From contig JARDVH010000124.1 in the NCBI GenBank assembly GCA_030324005.1, forward strand, positions 32,668,418 through 32,732,417: a stretch of DNA of 64,000 nucleotides, written 5' to 3'. Numbering within the stretch: position 1 is the stretch's first letter; every line of letters starts with the position of its first letter. A program made the translations under genes and the position numbers. Positions 17,712 to 63,660 of the stretch are shown piece by piece. The notes under the pieces are model-generated. The model was given only the letters and a program-made list of their open reading frames with translations. It searched no databases and had not been told where the DNA came from. This DNA is from Negaprion brevirostris (taxonomy: Eukaryota).

Positions 17712-18034
17712 AGAAGATCATACAATCCCTACAGTGCAAAAGGAAGCCATTCGGCCCATTGAGTCTGCACTGACAACAATCCCACCCAGGCTCTATCCCA
17801 TAACTCCACATATTTACCCTACTAATCCGTCTAACACTTAGGGGCAATTTAGTATGGCCAATCAAACTAACATGCACACCTTTGGACTGTGGGAGGAAAC
17901 CCACGCAGACATGGGGAGAACATGCAAACTCCACNNNNNNNNNNACAAAAAGACAGTCACCCAAGGCCAGAAGTGAACCCAGGTCCCTGGTGCTGTGAGA
18001 CACCAGTGCTAACTACAGTGCTATCATGCCACCC
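17712..18034 (-). mobile_element. HE1 SINE (V-SINE), near full length
   Basis: tRNA head, central ggagtttgcatgttctcccc domain and CR1/HER1-like tail. Confidence 0.92.
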
Positions 18035-19376: not shown

Positions 19377-22319
19377 TGTGAGTTAGCCACTCCACCACAA
19401 CTATTCTCATGCATTAAGAAACTGTTCATTATTCACCTCAGATTCTACACATGCATTGCACACACAGCCATTCATTCATGCAGGATTCTTAATGATACGT
19501 GTGAGCCATCATCATTTGTTTGGATGATGTTCCTTCTCTGGGGTATGTCATTCCTGAGACAATTATTGTTGGTGTGGTAACTGTAGTCAGGGTAATGTAC
19601 TCCATACAGCTCACAAGATCCGATCTTCCTGGCCAGCCGCCCACAATGAAGGAACAGCTTCTCTAGTAACTCATTTCTGCCTATGGTTCTGCTAGTATAT
19701 GTGATCGTTCATTTTCACCGTGCACAGTCAAGGTGACAACTGCTCTGCACATGTCTCAAGCTTCCACCTGGGCTGACTCCTGCTGAGAGCATTGAAGGTT
19801 TGTCATCTGAGAATTCTCAGCTCTGGCAATGGTTTGGTTTTCATGTGAAAATGAAATTTGGCTTTCTGCCATTTCACCTTGATTTTTTCACTCATGTTTG
19901 ATATTATCTTTGGCTTTAGTAGCTTTTCTGTCTAAAGATGGTAAAGTAAAGTAGGTGGATTGGCCATGCTAAATTGCCCCTTAGTATCCCAAGCTGTGCA
20001 GGTTAGGGGGATTACATTTCTCCTCAATAGNNNNNNNNNNNNNNNNNNNNNNNNNNNNNNNNNNNNNNNNNNNNNNNNNNNNNNNNNNNNNNNNNNNNNN
20101 NNNNNNNNNNNNNNNNNNNNNNNNNNNNNNNNNNNNNNNNNNNNNNNNNNNNNNNNNNNNNNNNNNNNNNNNNNNNNNNNNNNNNNNNNNNNNNNNNNNN
20201 NNNNNNNNNNNNNNNNNNNNNNNNNNNNNNNNNNNCAAAATTTCTGCTGTCTGTTTTTCTGTTTTCTACAGATAGATTTAGGGTGGAATATAACTTAATG
20301 CTGATTGTGTTGCAATTTATATCAGCTCTGGTTTGTTAATTAAATCTGGGGCAATCTTGCAGTTTTACCATCACAAGTGGAAATATTACTAGTTCGGCCA
20401 CATATCCCCACCCATTTTGACGAGAGCTGGGAGTGGAAAATTTCTAGTCATTTATGTCTCAGCCAATATTTTGCTTTCAGCCTTCAGCTTGTGTTAACTT
20501 TTCCCTGTTTGTGTTTTCTTTCTATTCTGCTGCCTTTTGCAGGTTGGAACATTTCAGTGTTTCTCTTTCACCAGCTGTGGCTTTTCTCCCAGCTTTTCAA
20601 AACTTAATTACAGCTCCACTTCTGACACCATGTTACAAGCTCAAAGACTACAGTTGTTCCAGTGTAGTATCTATATTGTACTGCTCATAACATGGTTACC
20701 CCCAGACATTCCCTCATGGCAGAGGTGACATGATCATGGCAAGCCAGTTAGGATGCTTTGTCATTGCTGCCTTTCAAAATCCAAACAGTCCACTGCAAGG
20801 AAGATCCAAACAGGACCCTCAGTCAGCCCACAAATGGGCAGTTAATTATGCTATTTAGCTACTTGCTACAGCCAGACAAGTAACCCCTGTGTTTGATGAG
20901 CTGCCTCAGGGAAAGTCACCTGGAAATGCTCCTGGTGTTGCCTTCAGGCCCATGCCTTCAGGACCAAGAAGATTCTTACCTAGGTAAAGGAGACAAAATA
21001 CTTGACTTTACTGTCTGCATGGTAGCAAAGTAGATGCTCTGACTATTATTGAATCTGCCTGACTATTAGCCATTTAATTTCAAGTGAGTGAGTATCGGAT
21101 GAGTTCCACAATAGAGAGAAATGTGGTTAGACGGCTTCCCACCCAGGCTGCAGAATAAAAATGTATCCTATCATTTCAAAGATTTCTAGAGGATGTATCT
21201 GGAAAAGTTAACTAGTTGACTATTATCTTTTTTTTTAATAGTTTTAACTAATTAAGCTAATGTAATCGATGTATTTCATTGTTAACTCAAACAATCAGGT
21301 AGGGAACAGATAAGTGCCAAGTAAAGTCCCCTGTTATACTGCAGCAACAGACTAATATAATCATGCTGCCTTAAGATCAAACTGATTGTTCTGATGTTGC
21401 ATATCTATAATTGTTCAATAGTTTGTATTGTGTCACAAAGTCATAACTGTTTCGGTTCTCAAAGCCCTATCCAAAATATAAGCAGCTCATCTTTTTCATC
21501 TATTTCAGCCATCAACCATTTCCTTTCCATTTGCCACGGCAACAGCTCGAGATCAATGTCCTCTCCAGTTTGGAAAATTGAGCACCTGACCTTATGTGAC
21601 TGAATTTACAAGGCGCCTGATCGTCTGCTGAGCGATTCATACCAACATCAAAGGATCAAGCATCAACGTGACTGCGAAAGTTTGGCCATCACCGGCAGTT
21701 ACCCCTTATGGTAATTTTTCTGATGGTTCCTACTAAAACCTGGAAATCAGAAGGTTCTGCATTCACAGCCTGTATTAATCCTGGAAGTCAAAATGAATGT
21801 GACTTCCTGCTGCCTGGGGAGGTTTTTGTCTTCCCTAACATTTTTCTCAATACAGCTGACCCCTGTGTTTCACTTCTAAATGGGACCATCCTTGATTGCC
21901 ACTTATCAAGCAGTGGAATCTGCAGCTCAACAGAATCAGTGCCACTGTGAACAAGGAATCCATTTTGATGCCATCATTATAACTTCACTTTTAAGACAAG
22001 TTATAGCCGTTAAGAAGAGCTGGGGCTTTATCCTCAGCTAGGTGTCATATAAGCCCAGTTTTGTGGACAAGCTTTTCCTTGGCTCATAACCTATTTGGAT
22101 TGGTGCAGGGTCTCCCATTGTAAAAGCCAGCAGAGTTATCTCCCAGAAGAGAGGCCTAATTTTCCTTCTGATATGGCTGGGGAAAATGAACCTCATGGCT
22201 GTTTCTGAGTCCAAATTCTATAACACTGCATCACACTCGCAGTTACTGCATTCAGATCCTAAACATTCGCAAAAGATGCAAAAGGATATTCCTCATGTCG
22301 CCATTGCCTCTTTTGCCAG

Positions 22320-22490
22320 TAGTTAGCACTGCTCCCTCACAGCACCAGGGACCTAGGTTCAATTCCGGCCGCGGATCACTACCCATGTAGAGTTTTCAAG
22401 TTCTCTTCATGTCTATGTGAGTTTCCTCCAGGTGCTCCGGTTTCCTCCCACAGTCCAACGATATATGGGTTAGGTTGATTGGCCAAATTC
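22320..22490 (+). mobile_element. HE1 SINE 5' part, running into a gap
   Basis: gttagcactgct...ggttcaattcc...ggtgctccggtttcctcccacagtcc. Confidence 0.9.
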
Positions 22491-22659: not shown

Positions 22660-23680
22660 ACTCTAAAGGGGTACAGGAGGAGAGGGACCTGAATGCATAT
22701 GTACACACATTACTGGGCAGATGGAGAGGATGGTTAATAAAGCTTAAAGCATCCTGGGTTTTATTAATAGGGGTGTAGAATATAAAAGCAAGTCAGTTAT
22801 GATAAAACATAAAACACAGCCTCAACTGGAGTATTGCATTCAGTTCTGGATGCCTCACTTTGTGAAGGAAGTGAAGGCATTAGAGAGAGTGCAGAAAAGT
22901 TTCATGAGAATGGTTCCAGTGATTAGGAACTTCAGTTATGTGGAGCAATTGGAGAAATTAGGACTGTTTTCCTTGGAAAAGAGAATTGGTTGAGAGGAGA
23001 TTTGTAAATATATTCAAAGTATGTTTCCAGGGGTCTGGAAGAGCAGATAGGGAAAAATTGTCCTCATTGTGGAAGGATTGAAAACAATAGGAAGCAGATC
23101 ATAGAATCATAGAATTTTGACAGTGCAGAAGGAGGCCATTCAGCCCATCAAGTCTGCACTGACAACAATCCCATCCAGTCCCTGGTCACAATCTCATGCT
23201 CCCACATACTTACCCTGCTAATCCCCCTGACACTGGTGTCATTTAGCATGGCCAATCAACTTAACCCGCTCATCTTTGGACTGTGGGAGGAAACCGGAGC
23301 ACCTGGAGGAAACTCATGCAGACATGGGAAGAGCCTGCAAACTCCACGCGGACAGTGAACCGAGACCAGAATTGAACCTGGGTCTCTGGCACTATGAGGC
23401 AGCAGTGCTAACTACTGGTGAAAGAGGCAATGGCAACATGAGGAATATCCCTTTGCATCTTTTGCAAATGTTTAGGATCTGGATTGCAGCAACTGAGAGT
23501 GTGATGGAGACATTTCAATTGAGACATCCAAGCAAATGTTGGATTATGATCTGAAAAAAGAATGTACAGGGTTAGGGAAAGGCAGGGATGTGACACTTGG
23601 TACACTGCTCCTATGGAGAGCAGGCGCAGACACAGTGGGAGAATGGTCTCCTCCTGTGCTGTAAGAGTTCTGTGATTCCT
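22660..23680 (+). mobile_element. CR1 3' region interrupted by an HE1 SINE
   Basis: QPQLEYCIQFWMPHFVKEVKALERVQK..LEKLGLFSLEKR; resumes at 23417 and runs to the tail ctgtgctgtaagagttctgtgattc. Confidence 0.88.
23098..23416 (-). mobile_element. HE1 SINE
   Basis: atcataga tail repeats, central V domain and tRNA head. Confidence 0.92.
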
Positions 23681-38912: not shown

Positions 38913-39233
38913 GTCATGGAATCCTGAAGATGCAGAAGGCAGCCATTCAGCCCATCGAGCCTGCATTGACAACATTCCCACCCTGGCCCTTTCCCCGTAA
39001 CCCCAAGTATTTACCCTGCTAATCCCCCTGACACTAAGGAGCGATTTAACATGGCCAATCAACCTAATTCACTCATCTTTGGCCTGTGGGAGAAAACCGG
39101 GGCACCCGGAGAAAACCCACACAGACACTGGGAGAACATGCAAATTCCACATAGACAGTGACCCGAGACTGGAACTGAATTCGGAATTCTGGCACTCCAA
39201 GGCAGCAGTGCTAACCACTATGTCGCTGTGCCG
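38913..39233 (-). mobile_element. HE1 SINE
   Basis: Full head-body-tail arrangement; a partial second copy lies at 39398-39568. Confidence 0.9.
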
Positions 39234-44752: not shown

Positions 44753-45080
44753 TGACACGGTGGCACAGTGGTTAGTACTTTTGCCTCACAGCACCAGGGA
44801 CCCGGGTTCTATTCTGGCCCTGGGTGACTGTCCATGTAAAGTTTGCACGCTCTCCCCCTGTCTGCATGAGTTTCCTCCCAATGCTCCAGTTTCCTCCCAC
44901 CACCAAAGACGTGTGGGTTAGGTTGATTGGTCATGCTAAATTGCCCCTTAATGTCAGGGGGAATTAGCAGGGCAAATACTTGGGGTTAGGGGATAGGACC
45001 TGGGTGGCATTGTTGTCAATGCAGGCTCGATGGGCTGAATGACCTCCTTCTGCATTGCACGGATTCTATGATTCCATGAT
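44753..45080 (+). mobile_element. HE1 SINE, full length
   Basis: Head gacacggtggcacagtggttag, V domain, tail ggattctatgattccatga. Confidence 0.93.
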
Positions 45081-47582: not shown

Positions 47583-47934
47583 GGGGTGGCATGTTGGCAC
47601 AGGGATTATCGCTGCTGCCTCACAGCTCCAGGGACACGAGTTCAATTCCGGCCTAGGGTGACTGTGTGGAGTTTGCATGTTCTCCTCATGTTGTGTGATT
47701 TTCCTTTGGGTGCTTCCTCCCACAGTCCAAAGTACGTGGGTTAGGTGGATTAGTTATGCTAAAGTGTTCCTTACTGTCTCGAGATGTGTAGATTAAATGG
47801 ATTAGCAATGGTAAATGTTTGGTATTACAGGGATATGGCAGGGAGAGGGCCTGGTACTCTGCCAGCATGTCAGTACAGACTCTATGGTCCGAATGGCCTT
47901 CTCTGCACTATAGGAATCCTATGATTCTATGATT
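47583..47934 (+). mobile_element. HE1 SINE
   Basis: tRNA head, V domain and cctatgattctatgatt tail. Confidence 0.9.
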
Positions 47935-55557: not shown

Positions 55558-55955
55558 GGGAAGTAGTGGCACAGTAGAATTACCACTGGACTAGCAATCC
55601 AGAGACCCAGCGCAAAGCTCTGGGAACTCAGATTTCAAACTCATCATGACAGTCTAATAAAATTATAAGACCTAGGAGCAGAATTAGGCCATCTGGCCCA
55701 TTGAGTCTGCTCCATCATTGAATCATGGCTGATATTTATCTTATCCCCATTGATGACCATGAAACCATTGTTGATCGTTGTCAAAAACCCATCTGGTTCA
55801 CTAATGTCCTTTAGGGAAGGAAATCTGTCATCTTTACCTGTATGGGCCCATGTATGACTCCAGGACCACGGCGATATGGTTGACTTAAATGCCCTCAGAA
55901 ATGGAAGGCAGTTGGGTAATCAGTGCTGGCCCAGCCAGCAATAGCCACATTCCCT
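55558..55955 (+). mobile_element. Second tRNA-derived SINE family, with a nested CR1 tail (about 55665-55750, -)
   Basis: gatgaccatgaaaccattg..aaaaacccatctggttcactaatgtcctttagggaaggaaatctg..gctggcccagccagc; copies at 57576 and 63302. Confidence 0.85.
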
Positions 55956-56420: not shown

Positions 56421-57200
56421 TACACGTTGAATTTGAAAGGGTCTCATTGGAATGGAGAGGGTTTCAAAGATTTCAGCTTGCTAGGAAGCTTCAGCACTTC
56501 AAATAAAGGCAGGAATGAGGCAAGAATGCAGATATTAATCACAGAGCTGCCTGAAATCACCACACCAGTTGTGATCTTCAGGTCTGCCAGGATGAAGGGA
56601 CAGTCCATGACACGCCCACCCCAGCAAAGTGTGGGAAAATCAAATCCTTTCTCCCAGTCTGAGCCCACATAACCCCCAGAGTCCATGAGGGACCCTTCCT
56701 CTGCAGCCTGGCAGTGGGGAAAATGGCCACTGGACCTACCTCCTTGGGCCCTCTCAGGGGCCAATGCACTGGGCCAGGACGTCTATGTCAGGGTGCCGGG
56801 GCAGTGCGCTGTTGGCACTGCCAGGCATGTAGGGATGAAGGAAGGCTAAGTGGGGTGTTCTGAGAGGGAGGGGAGGCTGAGGGTGGAAAGGTTGGGTCAT
56901 CCTTATGCCTATGTGGTGTGTAGGGGGAGAGTGATCCATGATTTGAGTGGTGGGTGGGGAGGGGAGGAGGAGGAAGAAGACTTTCTTTTCTGAGGGGTTG
57001 GTAGTGCTCCCCTAGATGTTTGGGGTCCATCACACCATGCCCCTGCTTGTGGGTAGCACATGTAATGCCCAATCATGCTGTTCCCACTGGTGAGCCGGGT
57101 GAATGGCGGGTGGCTGGTGAATGGCCTGTCAAGCATGCTAATGCAGTAAAAAGTCTGACAACACCAGGTTTTAGTCCAATTGATTTATTTGATAGTAAAC

Positions 57201-57238
57201 TCACAAACTTTCGAGGGGACACCCTCTTCATCAGGTGA
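57201..57238 (-). ncRNA. Minimal hammerhead ribozyme-like motif, antisense copy
   Basis: UCAC CUGAUGA A GAGGG UGUC CCCUC GAAA GU UU GUGA on the minus strand. Confidence 0.6.
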
Positions 57239-57264
57239 ATGGAGAGTTCAGGTGAACTCTCCAT

Positions 57265-57302
57265 TCACCTGACGAAGAGGGTGTCCCCTTGAAAGCTTGT
57301 GA
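57265..57302 (+). ncRNA. Minimal hammerhead ribozyme-like motif (Penelope type)
   Basis: UCAC CUGACGA A GAGGG UGUC CCCUU GAAA GC UU GUGA: core boxes, stem I UCAC/GUGA, stem II and palindromic AAGCUU. Confidence 0.65.
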
Positions 57303-57575
57303 GTTTACTATCAAATAAATCGGTTGGACTAAAACCNNNNNNNNNNNNNNNNNNNNNNNNNNNNNNNNNNNNNNNNNNNNNNNNNNNNNNNNNNNNNNNN
57401 NNNNNNNNNNNNNNNNNNNNNNNNNNNNNNNNNNNNTGTTTACCCCAGTCCAACACCGGCACATCCACATCAAGCATGCTAATGACATTGAAATTAGTGA
57501 GTTTGCATAATTATCAGGTTGCTGCTCCCTATAGATGCAAACCCAATTGGGGCAGATGGGGTGAATCCCAACATG

Positions 57576-57930
57576 GGGGAGGGCATTGTCCCAGTGGTAT
57601 TATTGCCAAACTATTAGTCCAGAAACTCAGCTAATATTGGGATTAGGGTTCGAATCCCACCTTGGCAGTTGGTGGAATTTGAATTCAATAAAAGTCACAT
57701 GGAATTAAGAATCTACTGATGACTATGAAACTATTGTTGATTGTTAGAAAAGCCCATCTGATCCATTCGAATCCTTTAGGGAACAAAACCTGCCATCCTT
57801 ACCTGGTCTGGCCTACATATGACTCCAGAGTCACTGCAACGTGATTGGCTCTCAACTTCTCTCGTGCAACTAAGGATGGGCAATAAATGTTGGCCAGCCA
57901 GCAATGCTCATGCCCTACAGAATAAAAAAA
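57576..57930 (+). mobile_element. Second tRNA-derived SINE family, full length
   Basis: B box ggttcgaatccc; body ggtggaatttgaattcaataaa; tail gggcaataaatgttggccagccagc..gaataaaaaaa. Confidence 0.9.
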
Positions 57931-59194
57931 GTATCCTCACACTCATTGGGAATCCCCAATTTGGGCTGACGCTCAATTCAACAGGCATTGGGATTCCCGT
58001 CAGCTGTCTGAAGAGGTCGGAGAATCAGACCTGATATCTTCATGATCAGACAGAACAGCAGCAGAGAAGGAAAAGAAAAGAAGCAGATTCTGCACTCTGG
58101 ATCAAACTACCTGACAAACTAACATGTAGCTAGAGATTTGTACGTCGAGCACCAGCTTGTTCAACTCATCGTTCTGAGTTGACGTTACCCTCAATTCGAG
58201 GGACAGTCAACAAACCTGGCCTGTGTCACTCCTATATTCTGTCAGTCCACTCTGCTACACTCATGTCCTGGACACTTCCTATTATTGCAAGTCATCTTTC
58301 TNNNNNNNNNNCCAAACAGTATTGCACTCACAAAATCCACAATGTCTGTCCCAATATCATAATATTTTACATTTTAATATGGTCACCACAACCCTTTCCT
58401 CTTTCATTTCGCTAATAATTATGCACACTTTTATCTATTTCCTTTTTATGAATCTTTCTTACTCTGGTTCACAAAATCTTTGTATTTCTTCTTTTCTGTT
58501 TCCCATGGAGAATTTATTGTAAAGGATTGGAATGGCATTCATCAGAGAACCTTGTGGGAATGCAGCATGAGTTTGATATATATTATGGGTTATAAAATTA
58601 CATTTCCTATATCTTTAAAATGGCAGGAAAAAGAGACACCAAACTGAAGAGTAAAATGACAAAAGTGGAAAAGAGTTAACTTTGACTCTGACATTTTTTA
58701 AGATATGGCATTGACATTCTGCTTCTAAAAGTATATTGGAGAAAGTTATGGGCACTTTTATTAATAGCATTCTGTAAATATCTTAAAAAGGTCACCCTCT
58801 TATATGCAGTGTCTTAGTATTGCAATTTAATGCAGGAAAAAAAAAGACCCCGTCAAATTGAATTTGATTTATATCACAACGCACTGATACTATTATTTTT
58901 ATTTAAACTTGTGATATGCTCTTTATTTTAGACCTGGGAAATAGAAGCAGCAATATTAATATCACTATAATTGACAGTGATTATAATGTAATTTCCAATA
59001 TCATACTTGCTATTAATGAAAACTTCCTTTTCTTTTGGATTCACTTTAAAATGTTGCCCGCCATTCATTTTTCACAATTGTTTCTGCTGGTCAGATACAA
59101 GGACGCACCGACTTCTTGAAAGCTATCCCCGGCACATCTTCTAATTCTATCTTTTACTTGCATTCTATGTCTTTAGAACTGTTCTCTAACTCCT

Positions 59195-63301: not shown

Positions 63302-63660
63302 CTTTTTTTATTCATTTGTGGGACATGGATGTCACTGGTTGGCCAGCATTTATTGCCCATTCCTAGTTGACCTTGGAGGGCAGTTGAGAGCCAACCACAT
63401 TGCTGAGGCTCTGGAGTCACATTTGACCAGACCAGGTAAGGATGGCAAATTTCCTTCTCTAAAGGACACTAATGGACCAGATGGGTTTTTCTGACAATTG
63501 ACAATGGTTTCATGGTTATCGGTAGATTCTTAGCTCCAGACATTTTGATTGAATTCAAATTCCACCAGCTGCCATAGCAGGATTCGAATCCACTTCCACA
63601 GAATATTAGCTAAGTTTCTGGGTTAATAGTCTAATAGTAATACCATTAAGCCACAGCCTA
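63302..63660 (-). mobile_element. Second tRNA-derived SINE family, full length
   Basis: Reverse complement of the family at 57576-57930. Confidence 0.9.

Follow-up and report, generated by a model that had tools for sequence, protein, structure and literature searches.

A young palindromic Penelope-derived insertion in Negaprion brevirostris with a decayed hammerhead motif on each strand, and its probable origin by twin priming

The window, the whole stretch of DNA analyzed here, is 64,000 nucleotides of the Negaprion brevirostris assembly, and the locus under study occupies its positions 57129–57484. Two inverted arms, each with a hammerhead motif, lie around a 4-nt center and between the two copies of a target-site duplication (TSD). 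Its features, from left to right, are given below.

57129–57143 (+): left copy of the 15-bp TSD, equal to 57470–57484; single contigs of runs X2 and X3 fuse 57128/57129 to 57470/57471
57144–57249 (−), 106 nt: untailed pLTR arm, inverted, element positions 0 to −105, where 0 is the untailed end
57201–57238 (−): hammerhead motif of the minimal type I, with cleavage predicted between 57205 and 57204
57250–57253: 4-nt central insert between the two arms, each of which stops at −105
57254–57336 (+): tailed pLTR arm, element positions −105 to −23, with 1 transition relative to the family majority
57265–57302 (+): hammerhead motif of the minimal type I, with cleavage predicted between 57298 and 57299
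57337–57436: assembly gap (100 N), where 23 bases (−22 to 0) are predicted from the family sequence if the arm is continuous
57437–57469 (+): Penelope tail, positions +1 to +33; in longer copies the ATG of the ORF comes next
57470–57484 (+): right copy of the 15-bp TSD, 100% identical to the left copy

In full, the arms span 57144–57249 and 57254–57469, the latter crossing the gap and including the tail, and the first three bases of the TSD equal template positions +34 to +36. The original prediction had described a palindrome of 84-bp arms with a 2-nt loop, five mismatches and a 15-bp TSD. Arm comparison recovered 57167–57250 and 57253–57336, 94% complementary with 2 nt between them, and located all five mismatches (57180/57323, 57181/57322, 57207/57296, 57213/57290 and 57230/57273); the TSD was likewise found as an exact direct repeat, and the finder returned a repeat of at least 10 bp at 2 of 300 random control positions. 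Each mismatch is a transition away from the family majority, and both arms are affected. Relative to that majority, the left arm (57144–57249) carries four changes, all transitions, the right arm one and the tail two, one of these at a polymorphic site. Barring the ambiguity at that site, all changes in the arms and tail are transitions, and four lie in CpG.

The central insert and its flanking bases repeat the 9-mer of 57231–57239. Because the family base at −106 is A in 64 of 64 arms, the central bases of the locus are not a continuation of the template; from their sequence, the 4 nt were likely copied in from a template at a join made through microhomology. Two 9-mer copies identical to element positions 57234–57242 also occur in the left flank (57098–57111 and 57116–57129), fewer than 35 bases from the insertion site. 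The flank with both 9-mers is present in empty-site contigs and therefore predates the insertion. The match between flank and element is probably due to chance, at rough odds of a few percent, and homology-assisted targeting through these 9-mers may also have played a part.

Elsewhere in the window, 150 of the 154 open stretches of at least 72 aa were scanned and contained no host-gene domain, the matches being one weak unrelated hit and one reverse transcriptase (RT) fragment (911–1138, +; RVT_1, E = 5.5e-6, below the cut-off). PDB sequence searches returned nothing useful. A dispersed repeat at 57595–57931, 63302–63645 and 55751–55896, possibly SINE-like, shows 77–78% identity between copies, and each of the four runs contains it in great abundance. 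Another dispersed repeat, ~300 bases long (17717–18021, 22226–22485, 23098–23417, 38914–39230, 44753–45080 and 47587–47778) is present in many copies at 70–85% identity.

The insertion is real, young and lineage-specific. In runs X2 and X3 (organism B), individual contigs pass from one flank to the other through a single 15-mer, with nothing inserted, and one contig of run X4 (organism C) lies on both flanks; the flanks of these relatives differ from the window by ~2–4%. Contigs of run X1, which may be the assembly's own sample, contain both outer junctions with 0 differences, across 56717–57165 on the left and 57445–57637 on the right. Flank cover is missing among the contigs of run X11, and this, like the lack of a contig across the center, carries no weight either way. 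An assembly fold-back, one of the refutations foreseen with the original prediction, would draw on the 100-N gap adjoining the right arm and on the center, for which, as for 57337–57436, no bridging contig was found among those listed, so that the center is taken from the assembly alone. This artifact is extremely unlikely, because contigs of the relatives carry the empty site with one TSD copy. A folded-back assembly would also yield identical arms, whereas these differ at five sites; in addition, the TSD is present, the X1 contigs hold both outer junctions and gap-free loci show the same architecture. Most copies of the family in the same assembly (G000, L062–L176) have an N gap directly at their inner end, and the palindromes must therefore systematically break assembly, so that their true frequency is undercounted.

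The arms belong to a family with more than 7,000 copies in the genome. A 25-mer of the arm gave 7,189 exact genome matches, the hammerhead with its flanks gave 7,734 compared to 0 for the reversed control, and the motif of the locus's own subfamily gave 1,134. Longer copies extend upstream through the 3′ UTR into the end of an ORF, and in one of them (L094) the ORF end, 3′ UTR, hammerhead and tail are contiguous. In the other direction, 135 copies run on past the tail into the ATG, which in L399 opens an ORF reaching the RT region. The same segment is thus found after the ORF end (L094) and before the ORF start (L399), as is the case for a pLTR. RVT_1 was matched below the cut-off upstream of the endonuclease (EN) piece in L097 (E = 5.6e-5). 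The EN piece itself gave no Pfam match, but its homolog P0002, at 85% identity with 96% cover, scores above the Pfam cut-off for GIY-YIG; one homolog of the C-terminal piece is annotated in a shark. The architecture of the parent ORF, RT followed by a C-terminal GIY-YIG, was read from broken copies only. As the ORF combines RT with GIY-YIG and has a pLTR at both ends, the arms can be assigned to the pLTR of an EN+ Penelope-like element (PLE), in agreement with the predicted Penelope origin and inverted pLTR arrangement. A 36-nt tail on the right arm only, the 15-bp TSD and the empty site are those of an EN+ insertion. Judged by sequence, the locus is two 5′-truncated pLTR copies of such an element placed head to head. 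Older Penelope subfamilies with other stem II sequences (L049, L154 and L163) have the same inverted tailed structure near younger copies.

On each strand, the hammerhead reads CUGANGA-A-stem II-GAAA-GCUU and is closed by UCAC/GUGA, at the places that had been predicted. The assignment to minimal type I hammerheads with a palindromic AGCU also stood at the family level. In 12 copies chosen by their endonuclease region and not by the motif, CCTGA and AAGCT were invariant while stem II differed. Stem II pairs 2–4 were paired in 80 of 90 cells compared to 65.9 after shuffling, and 0 of 5,000 shuffles reached 80; the sample was 30 loci with 25 distinct stems, among which related copies inflate the result. 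The covariation check suggested with the original prediction therefore came out positive for stem II, while most of stem I and pair 1 of stem II were fixed by the search pattern. Conservation of the core relative to its flanks, the other suggested check, was mixed, as the core was invariant but many columns of the 3′ UTR were equally so. From these alignments, the hammerheads look to be under selection at the family level. A search of Rfam at E ≤ 5 gave no hammerhead match; seven of its nine matches were to generic miRNA hairpin models, and all seven fell below their gathering scores.

At this locus, the anticipated competition between the long hairpin and the ribozyme fold was borne out, the hairpin being far more stable in predicted folding. 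Its predicted energy is −142 kcal/mol on either strand, and forcing one or the other hammerhead was predicted to cost 58.6 or 63.6 kcal/mol against it. Both motifs have also decayed. In the − motif, the dimer palindrome changed from AGCU to AGUU (57207) and N7 from C to U (57230), and its helix III duplex is predicted at −1.4 compared to −6.7 kcal/mol. In the + motif, G10.1–C11.1 became G–U (57290, a CpG). Neither motif consequently has both an intact G10.1–C11.1 pair and an intact dimer palindrome, each showing one defect. With one sense motif per strand and the antisense arm transcribed first in either direction, no dimer can form in cis. The fold cost, the single sense motif per strand and the decay changes speak against the claim that RNA of either strand could carry a working self-cleaving motif, and under the folding model both motifs are very probably inactive passengers locked in the hairpin.

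A hairpin of this stability on either strand might instead serve as a functional hairpin-RNA or small-RNA locus, an endo-siRNA source or an A-to-I editing substrate that silences the family. Antisense small RNAs from rotifer Penelopes appear in the available text of PMC3846280, and such a role would be compatible with the twin priming favored below. Three relatives' runs are nonetheless without the insertion, the transitions in the arms stand unrepaired as under neutral decay, and the scanned open stretches hold no host-gene domain, although a long intron is still possible. We consider this role very unlikely.

The exact center of the locus occurs once in the genome. At 99 loci, a short center is flanked by hammerheads on both sides, and the joins of these loci vary, ranging in the 50 listed from 4-nt overlaps to 15-nt inserts. 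Gap-free joins at other loci were overlaps of 1–5 nt, blunt or locally templated inserts. The unique center and the varied joins indicate that the palindrome was made at insertion, with no sign of movement as a unit, and the same two observations count against its original description as a short non-autonomous retroelement. A palindromic retroelement of this kind, moving as a unit and using its hammerhead on either strand, would fit the TSD, the two motifs and the young age, and some joins do recur (−101/−106 in 5 of 50 loci and −119/−107 in 3 of 50). The commonest of them, −101/−106, has the tail on either arm (L213 compared to L251) and so arose more than once. Given also the decay change in each motif and a probability of ~1e-42 to 1e-45 for the hammerhead fold within the hairpin, movement as a unit is largely refuted, and we see hardly any room for it.

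The outer ends of the arms are bimodal. Among 95 ends, 54 lay at −9 to +7 and 40 at +32 to +38, the latter value being the end of the reference sequence, and one fell between. The two modes correspond to the pair of reverse-transcription start sites that bound the tail in the anole element (PMC11167929). In a position-ordered sample from contig C1 (90 loci fetched, 2 duplicates dropped and 60 of the remaining 88 unclassed), a tailed arm was paired with an untailed arm in all 28 resolvable pairs. A TSD was found in 27 of the 28, and in 14 of these it was 12–13 bp. The same pairing was seen in 24 of 26 pairs among 58 best matches, 21 of 25 among 50 double-hammerhead loci, 21 of 27 among 30 loci (of the six exceptions, four have a partial tail and two a gap), and in a last sample of 90 loci it was seen in 20 of 24 pairs (the exceptions being three untailed pairs and one tailed pair). 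In the last sample, 66 of 90 loci were unclassed; here and in the C1 sample, many unclassed loci have an arm entering an assembly gap. The samples overlap in a few loci. Exceptions to the pairing include ~4 gap-free loci with two untailed arms and one locus with two tailed arms. The deeper arm was the untailed one in 17 of 21 gap-free pairs, a count biased upward because BLAST misses short untailed arms. Subfamily tags agreed between the arms at 79 of 87 sites compared to 60.4 expected, and the stem II distance was 1.44 within loci compared to 5.04 between them (16 of 50 loci readable). This arm-to-arm comparison was used in place of a column-wise count of shared and private variants (162 and 278), which was dropped as the single-subfamily alignment misplaces stem II.

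In the established geometry of target-primed reverse transcription, a TSD implies two 3′ overhangs. In vitro, the protein of an anole PLE cuts either strand and extends it, starting at two sites that define the tail, according to the available text of Frangieh et al. (PMC11167929). The overhangs, the pairing of tailed with untailed arms, the shared tags and this two-strand extension together point to twin target-primed reverse transcription, and we think it probable that both target nicks primed on one element RNA in a one-time event at the site. The element's protein would nick both target strands 15 bp apart and leave two 3′ overhangs. One overhang would prime at the tail site, aided by the 3-nt match, and the other at a site 36 nt upstream of it. 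Both cDNAs would halt at −105, where an RNA initiated in the pLTR probably has its 5′ end, and the cDNA ends would join by microhomology with the 4-nt templated insert before fill-in. Thereafter, the arms would decay independently, mainly at CpG, and transcripts running through the locus would adopt the long hairpin instead of the ribozyme fold.

Copying by fold-back, gene conversion, or a pair of RNAs transcribed from a single source locus would be compatible with the shared arm tags too. Self-priming (snap-back), in which one cDNA or antisense template folds back and is copied into the inverted arm, has been proposed for rotifer Penelopes in the accessible part of PMC3846280; it would account for tags common to both arms and for the shared end point of this locus's two arms on either side of a 4-nt loop. 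A folded tail-primed cDNA cannot, however, yield the deeper untailed arm of 17 of 21 gap-free pairs, a tally that ascertainment favors, and an untailed cDNA folding back has no source for the tail. Moreover, the inverted arm ends at the second reverse-transcription start site and not in copied target DNA. Snap-back suits the symmetry of the locus but not the family pattern, and as a general explanation we judge it unlikely; at this locus, twin priming may have been completed by a local snap-back.

Both arms of the locus end at −105, where a preferred inner stop was evident in the family. The 93 hammerhead-anchored arms comprised 51 true ends, 38 gap-cut arms and 4 indels. Ten of the 51 true ends lay at −105/−106 compared to 1.9 expected (p = 2.7e-5, or 2e-3 after 74 windows), 2 of the 10 being microhomology joins to the mirror arm. 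In the double-hammerhead set, 33 of 100 ends lay at −105 to −107. The simplest reading is that −105 is probably a candidate 5′ end of the pLTR-initiated RNA. A TATA-like motif lies only 20 nt upstream of this stop, compared to the ~30 nt of the TATA-to-start spacing rule. Read-through RNA is needed for the 44 of 93 arms that extend to −111 or deeper. The ribozyme cut site did not emerge as a preferred inner end: 1 of 52 ends was at −61 and 0 at −60 in a constrained and weak sample of 30 loci, and inspection of 100 rows by eye gave ~2 each at −60 and −61 compared to ~4 at −59 and 5 at −62. Within L009:1560–1645, eight consecutive bases of the tail could pair with −36 to −29, a stretch conserved across subfamilies, in a stem-loop that would enclose the untailed start site. 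This stem-loop folds no better than shuffles (z = −0.45).

Twin priming by itself leaves the regularity of the pairing to be accounted for. Either strand used both start sites alike in vitro, as described in the available text of PMC11167929, and the pairing of tailed with untailed arms is therefore not predicted by that alone. It would follow if one protein dimer held one RNA and allowed one reverse-transcription start per start site and one per target nick, so that in nearly all inverted insertions one arm would be tailed and the other untailed. The pile-up at −105/−106 would then mark the 5′ end of the RNA, with this locus as the limiting case in which both cDNAs run off. Taken jointly, we give these two propositions an even chance. 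If the dimer reading is true, thousands of stubs form an in vivo record of the Penelope mechanism, and the inverted pLTR and one-sided tail are explained without self-priming or ribozyme cleavage.

The locus itself is a neutral, lineage-specific stub, and the family is of modest importance, for what it says about the copying mechanism. Hammerhead counts in such genomes would mostly tally dead passengers, and such palindromes commonly cause assembly gaps. The near-strict pairing of tailed with untailed arms and the preferred inner stop each provide a sharp prediction for the in vitro system that already exists.

Among known systems, LINE-1 offers a parallel in its twin priming: a single RNA is primed from both nicks, and the product is a 5′-inverted insertion that is joined by microhomology and has a TSD. 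In LINE-1, the two segments are adjacent and not duplicated. The proposed Penelope event shares the priming of both nicks on one RNA, the microhomology join and the TSD; unlike in LINE-1, both starts fall within 36 nt, so the same stretch would be copied twice and a palindrome would result. This reading for Penelope was not found in the openly available literature searched; Supplementary Figs. S1 and S2 of PMC11167929 may bear on the claim of two-strand priming.

The architecture of inverted insertions is already published (available parts of PMC3846280, PMC8557442, PMC2377424 and PMC6765202). Insertions of Pen2a_Av and other EN+ PLEs, as presented in the accessible text of PMC3846280 and, for the general scheme, PMC8557442, likewise have a head-to-head inverted 5′-truncated pLTR, a short TSD, a tail of 30–40 bp at one end only and assembly gaps at such structures, whereas both arms of the present locus are stubs with no ORF between them. 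In these texts, the tail is treated as optional and the inversion is attributed to self-priming or left open; here, by contrast, the pairing of tailed and untailed arms was counted and points to priming from both nicks. The portion of PMC8557442 available calls the formation of tandem and inverted PLE structures undefined.

Minimal hammerheads of metazoan PLEs, in the sections of Cervera and de la Peña 2014 (PMC4209133) at hand, share with this family the extra base between A9 and 10.1, G10.1–C11.1, a palindromic 15.2–16.2 and a family-specific stem II. The same sections report low activity even as dimers and opposite-strand motif pairs 100–700 bp apart. At this locus, the motifs sit nearer to each other than in those pairs, their cores being ~35 bases apart; both have decayed, and folding predicts that the hairpin keeps them locked. 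Immediately 5′ of the predicted cut, the locus has U where sister subfamilies have A. Non-LTR (animal) retrozymes are also non-coding, PLE-derived and equipped with type I hammerheads, and one was considered as an identity for the locus. It was ruled out, as the available text of bioRxiv 10.64898/2026.07.22.740005 describes head-to-tail tandems with hammerheads on one strand, while the locus has its arms head to head and a single motif on each strand, the gap being unread.

Another close system, Poseidon of Anolis carolinensis (PAc; Frangieh et al. 2024, PMC11167929), also has two internal reverse-transcription start sites bounding the tail. In the available text of that study, insertion in vitro proceeds without ribozyme cleavage, the steps after priming are left unvalidated and inverted insertions are not derived from two-strand priming. 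The PAc ORF starts inside the hammerhead, and the start sites lie more than 100 nt into the ORF; in the shark element, by contrast, ~100–130 nt separate the hammerhead from the ATG that follows it, and the ATG also marks where the tail ends.
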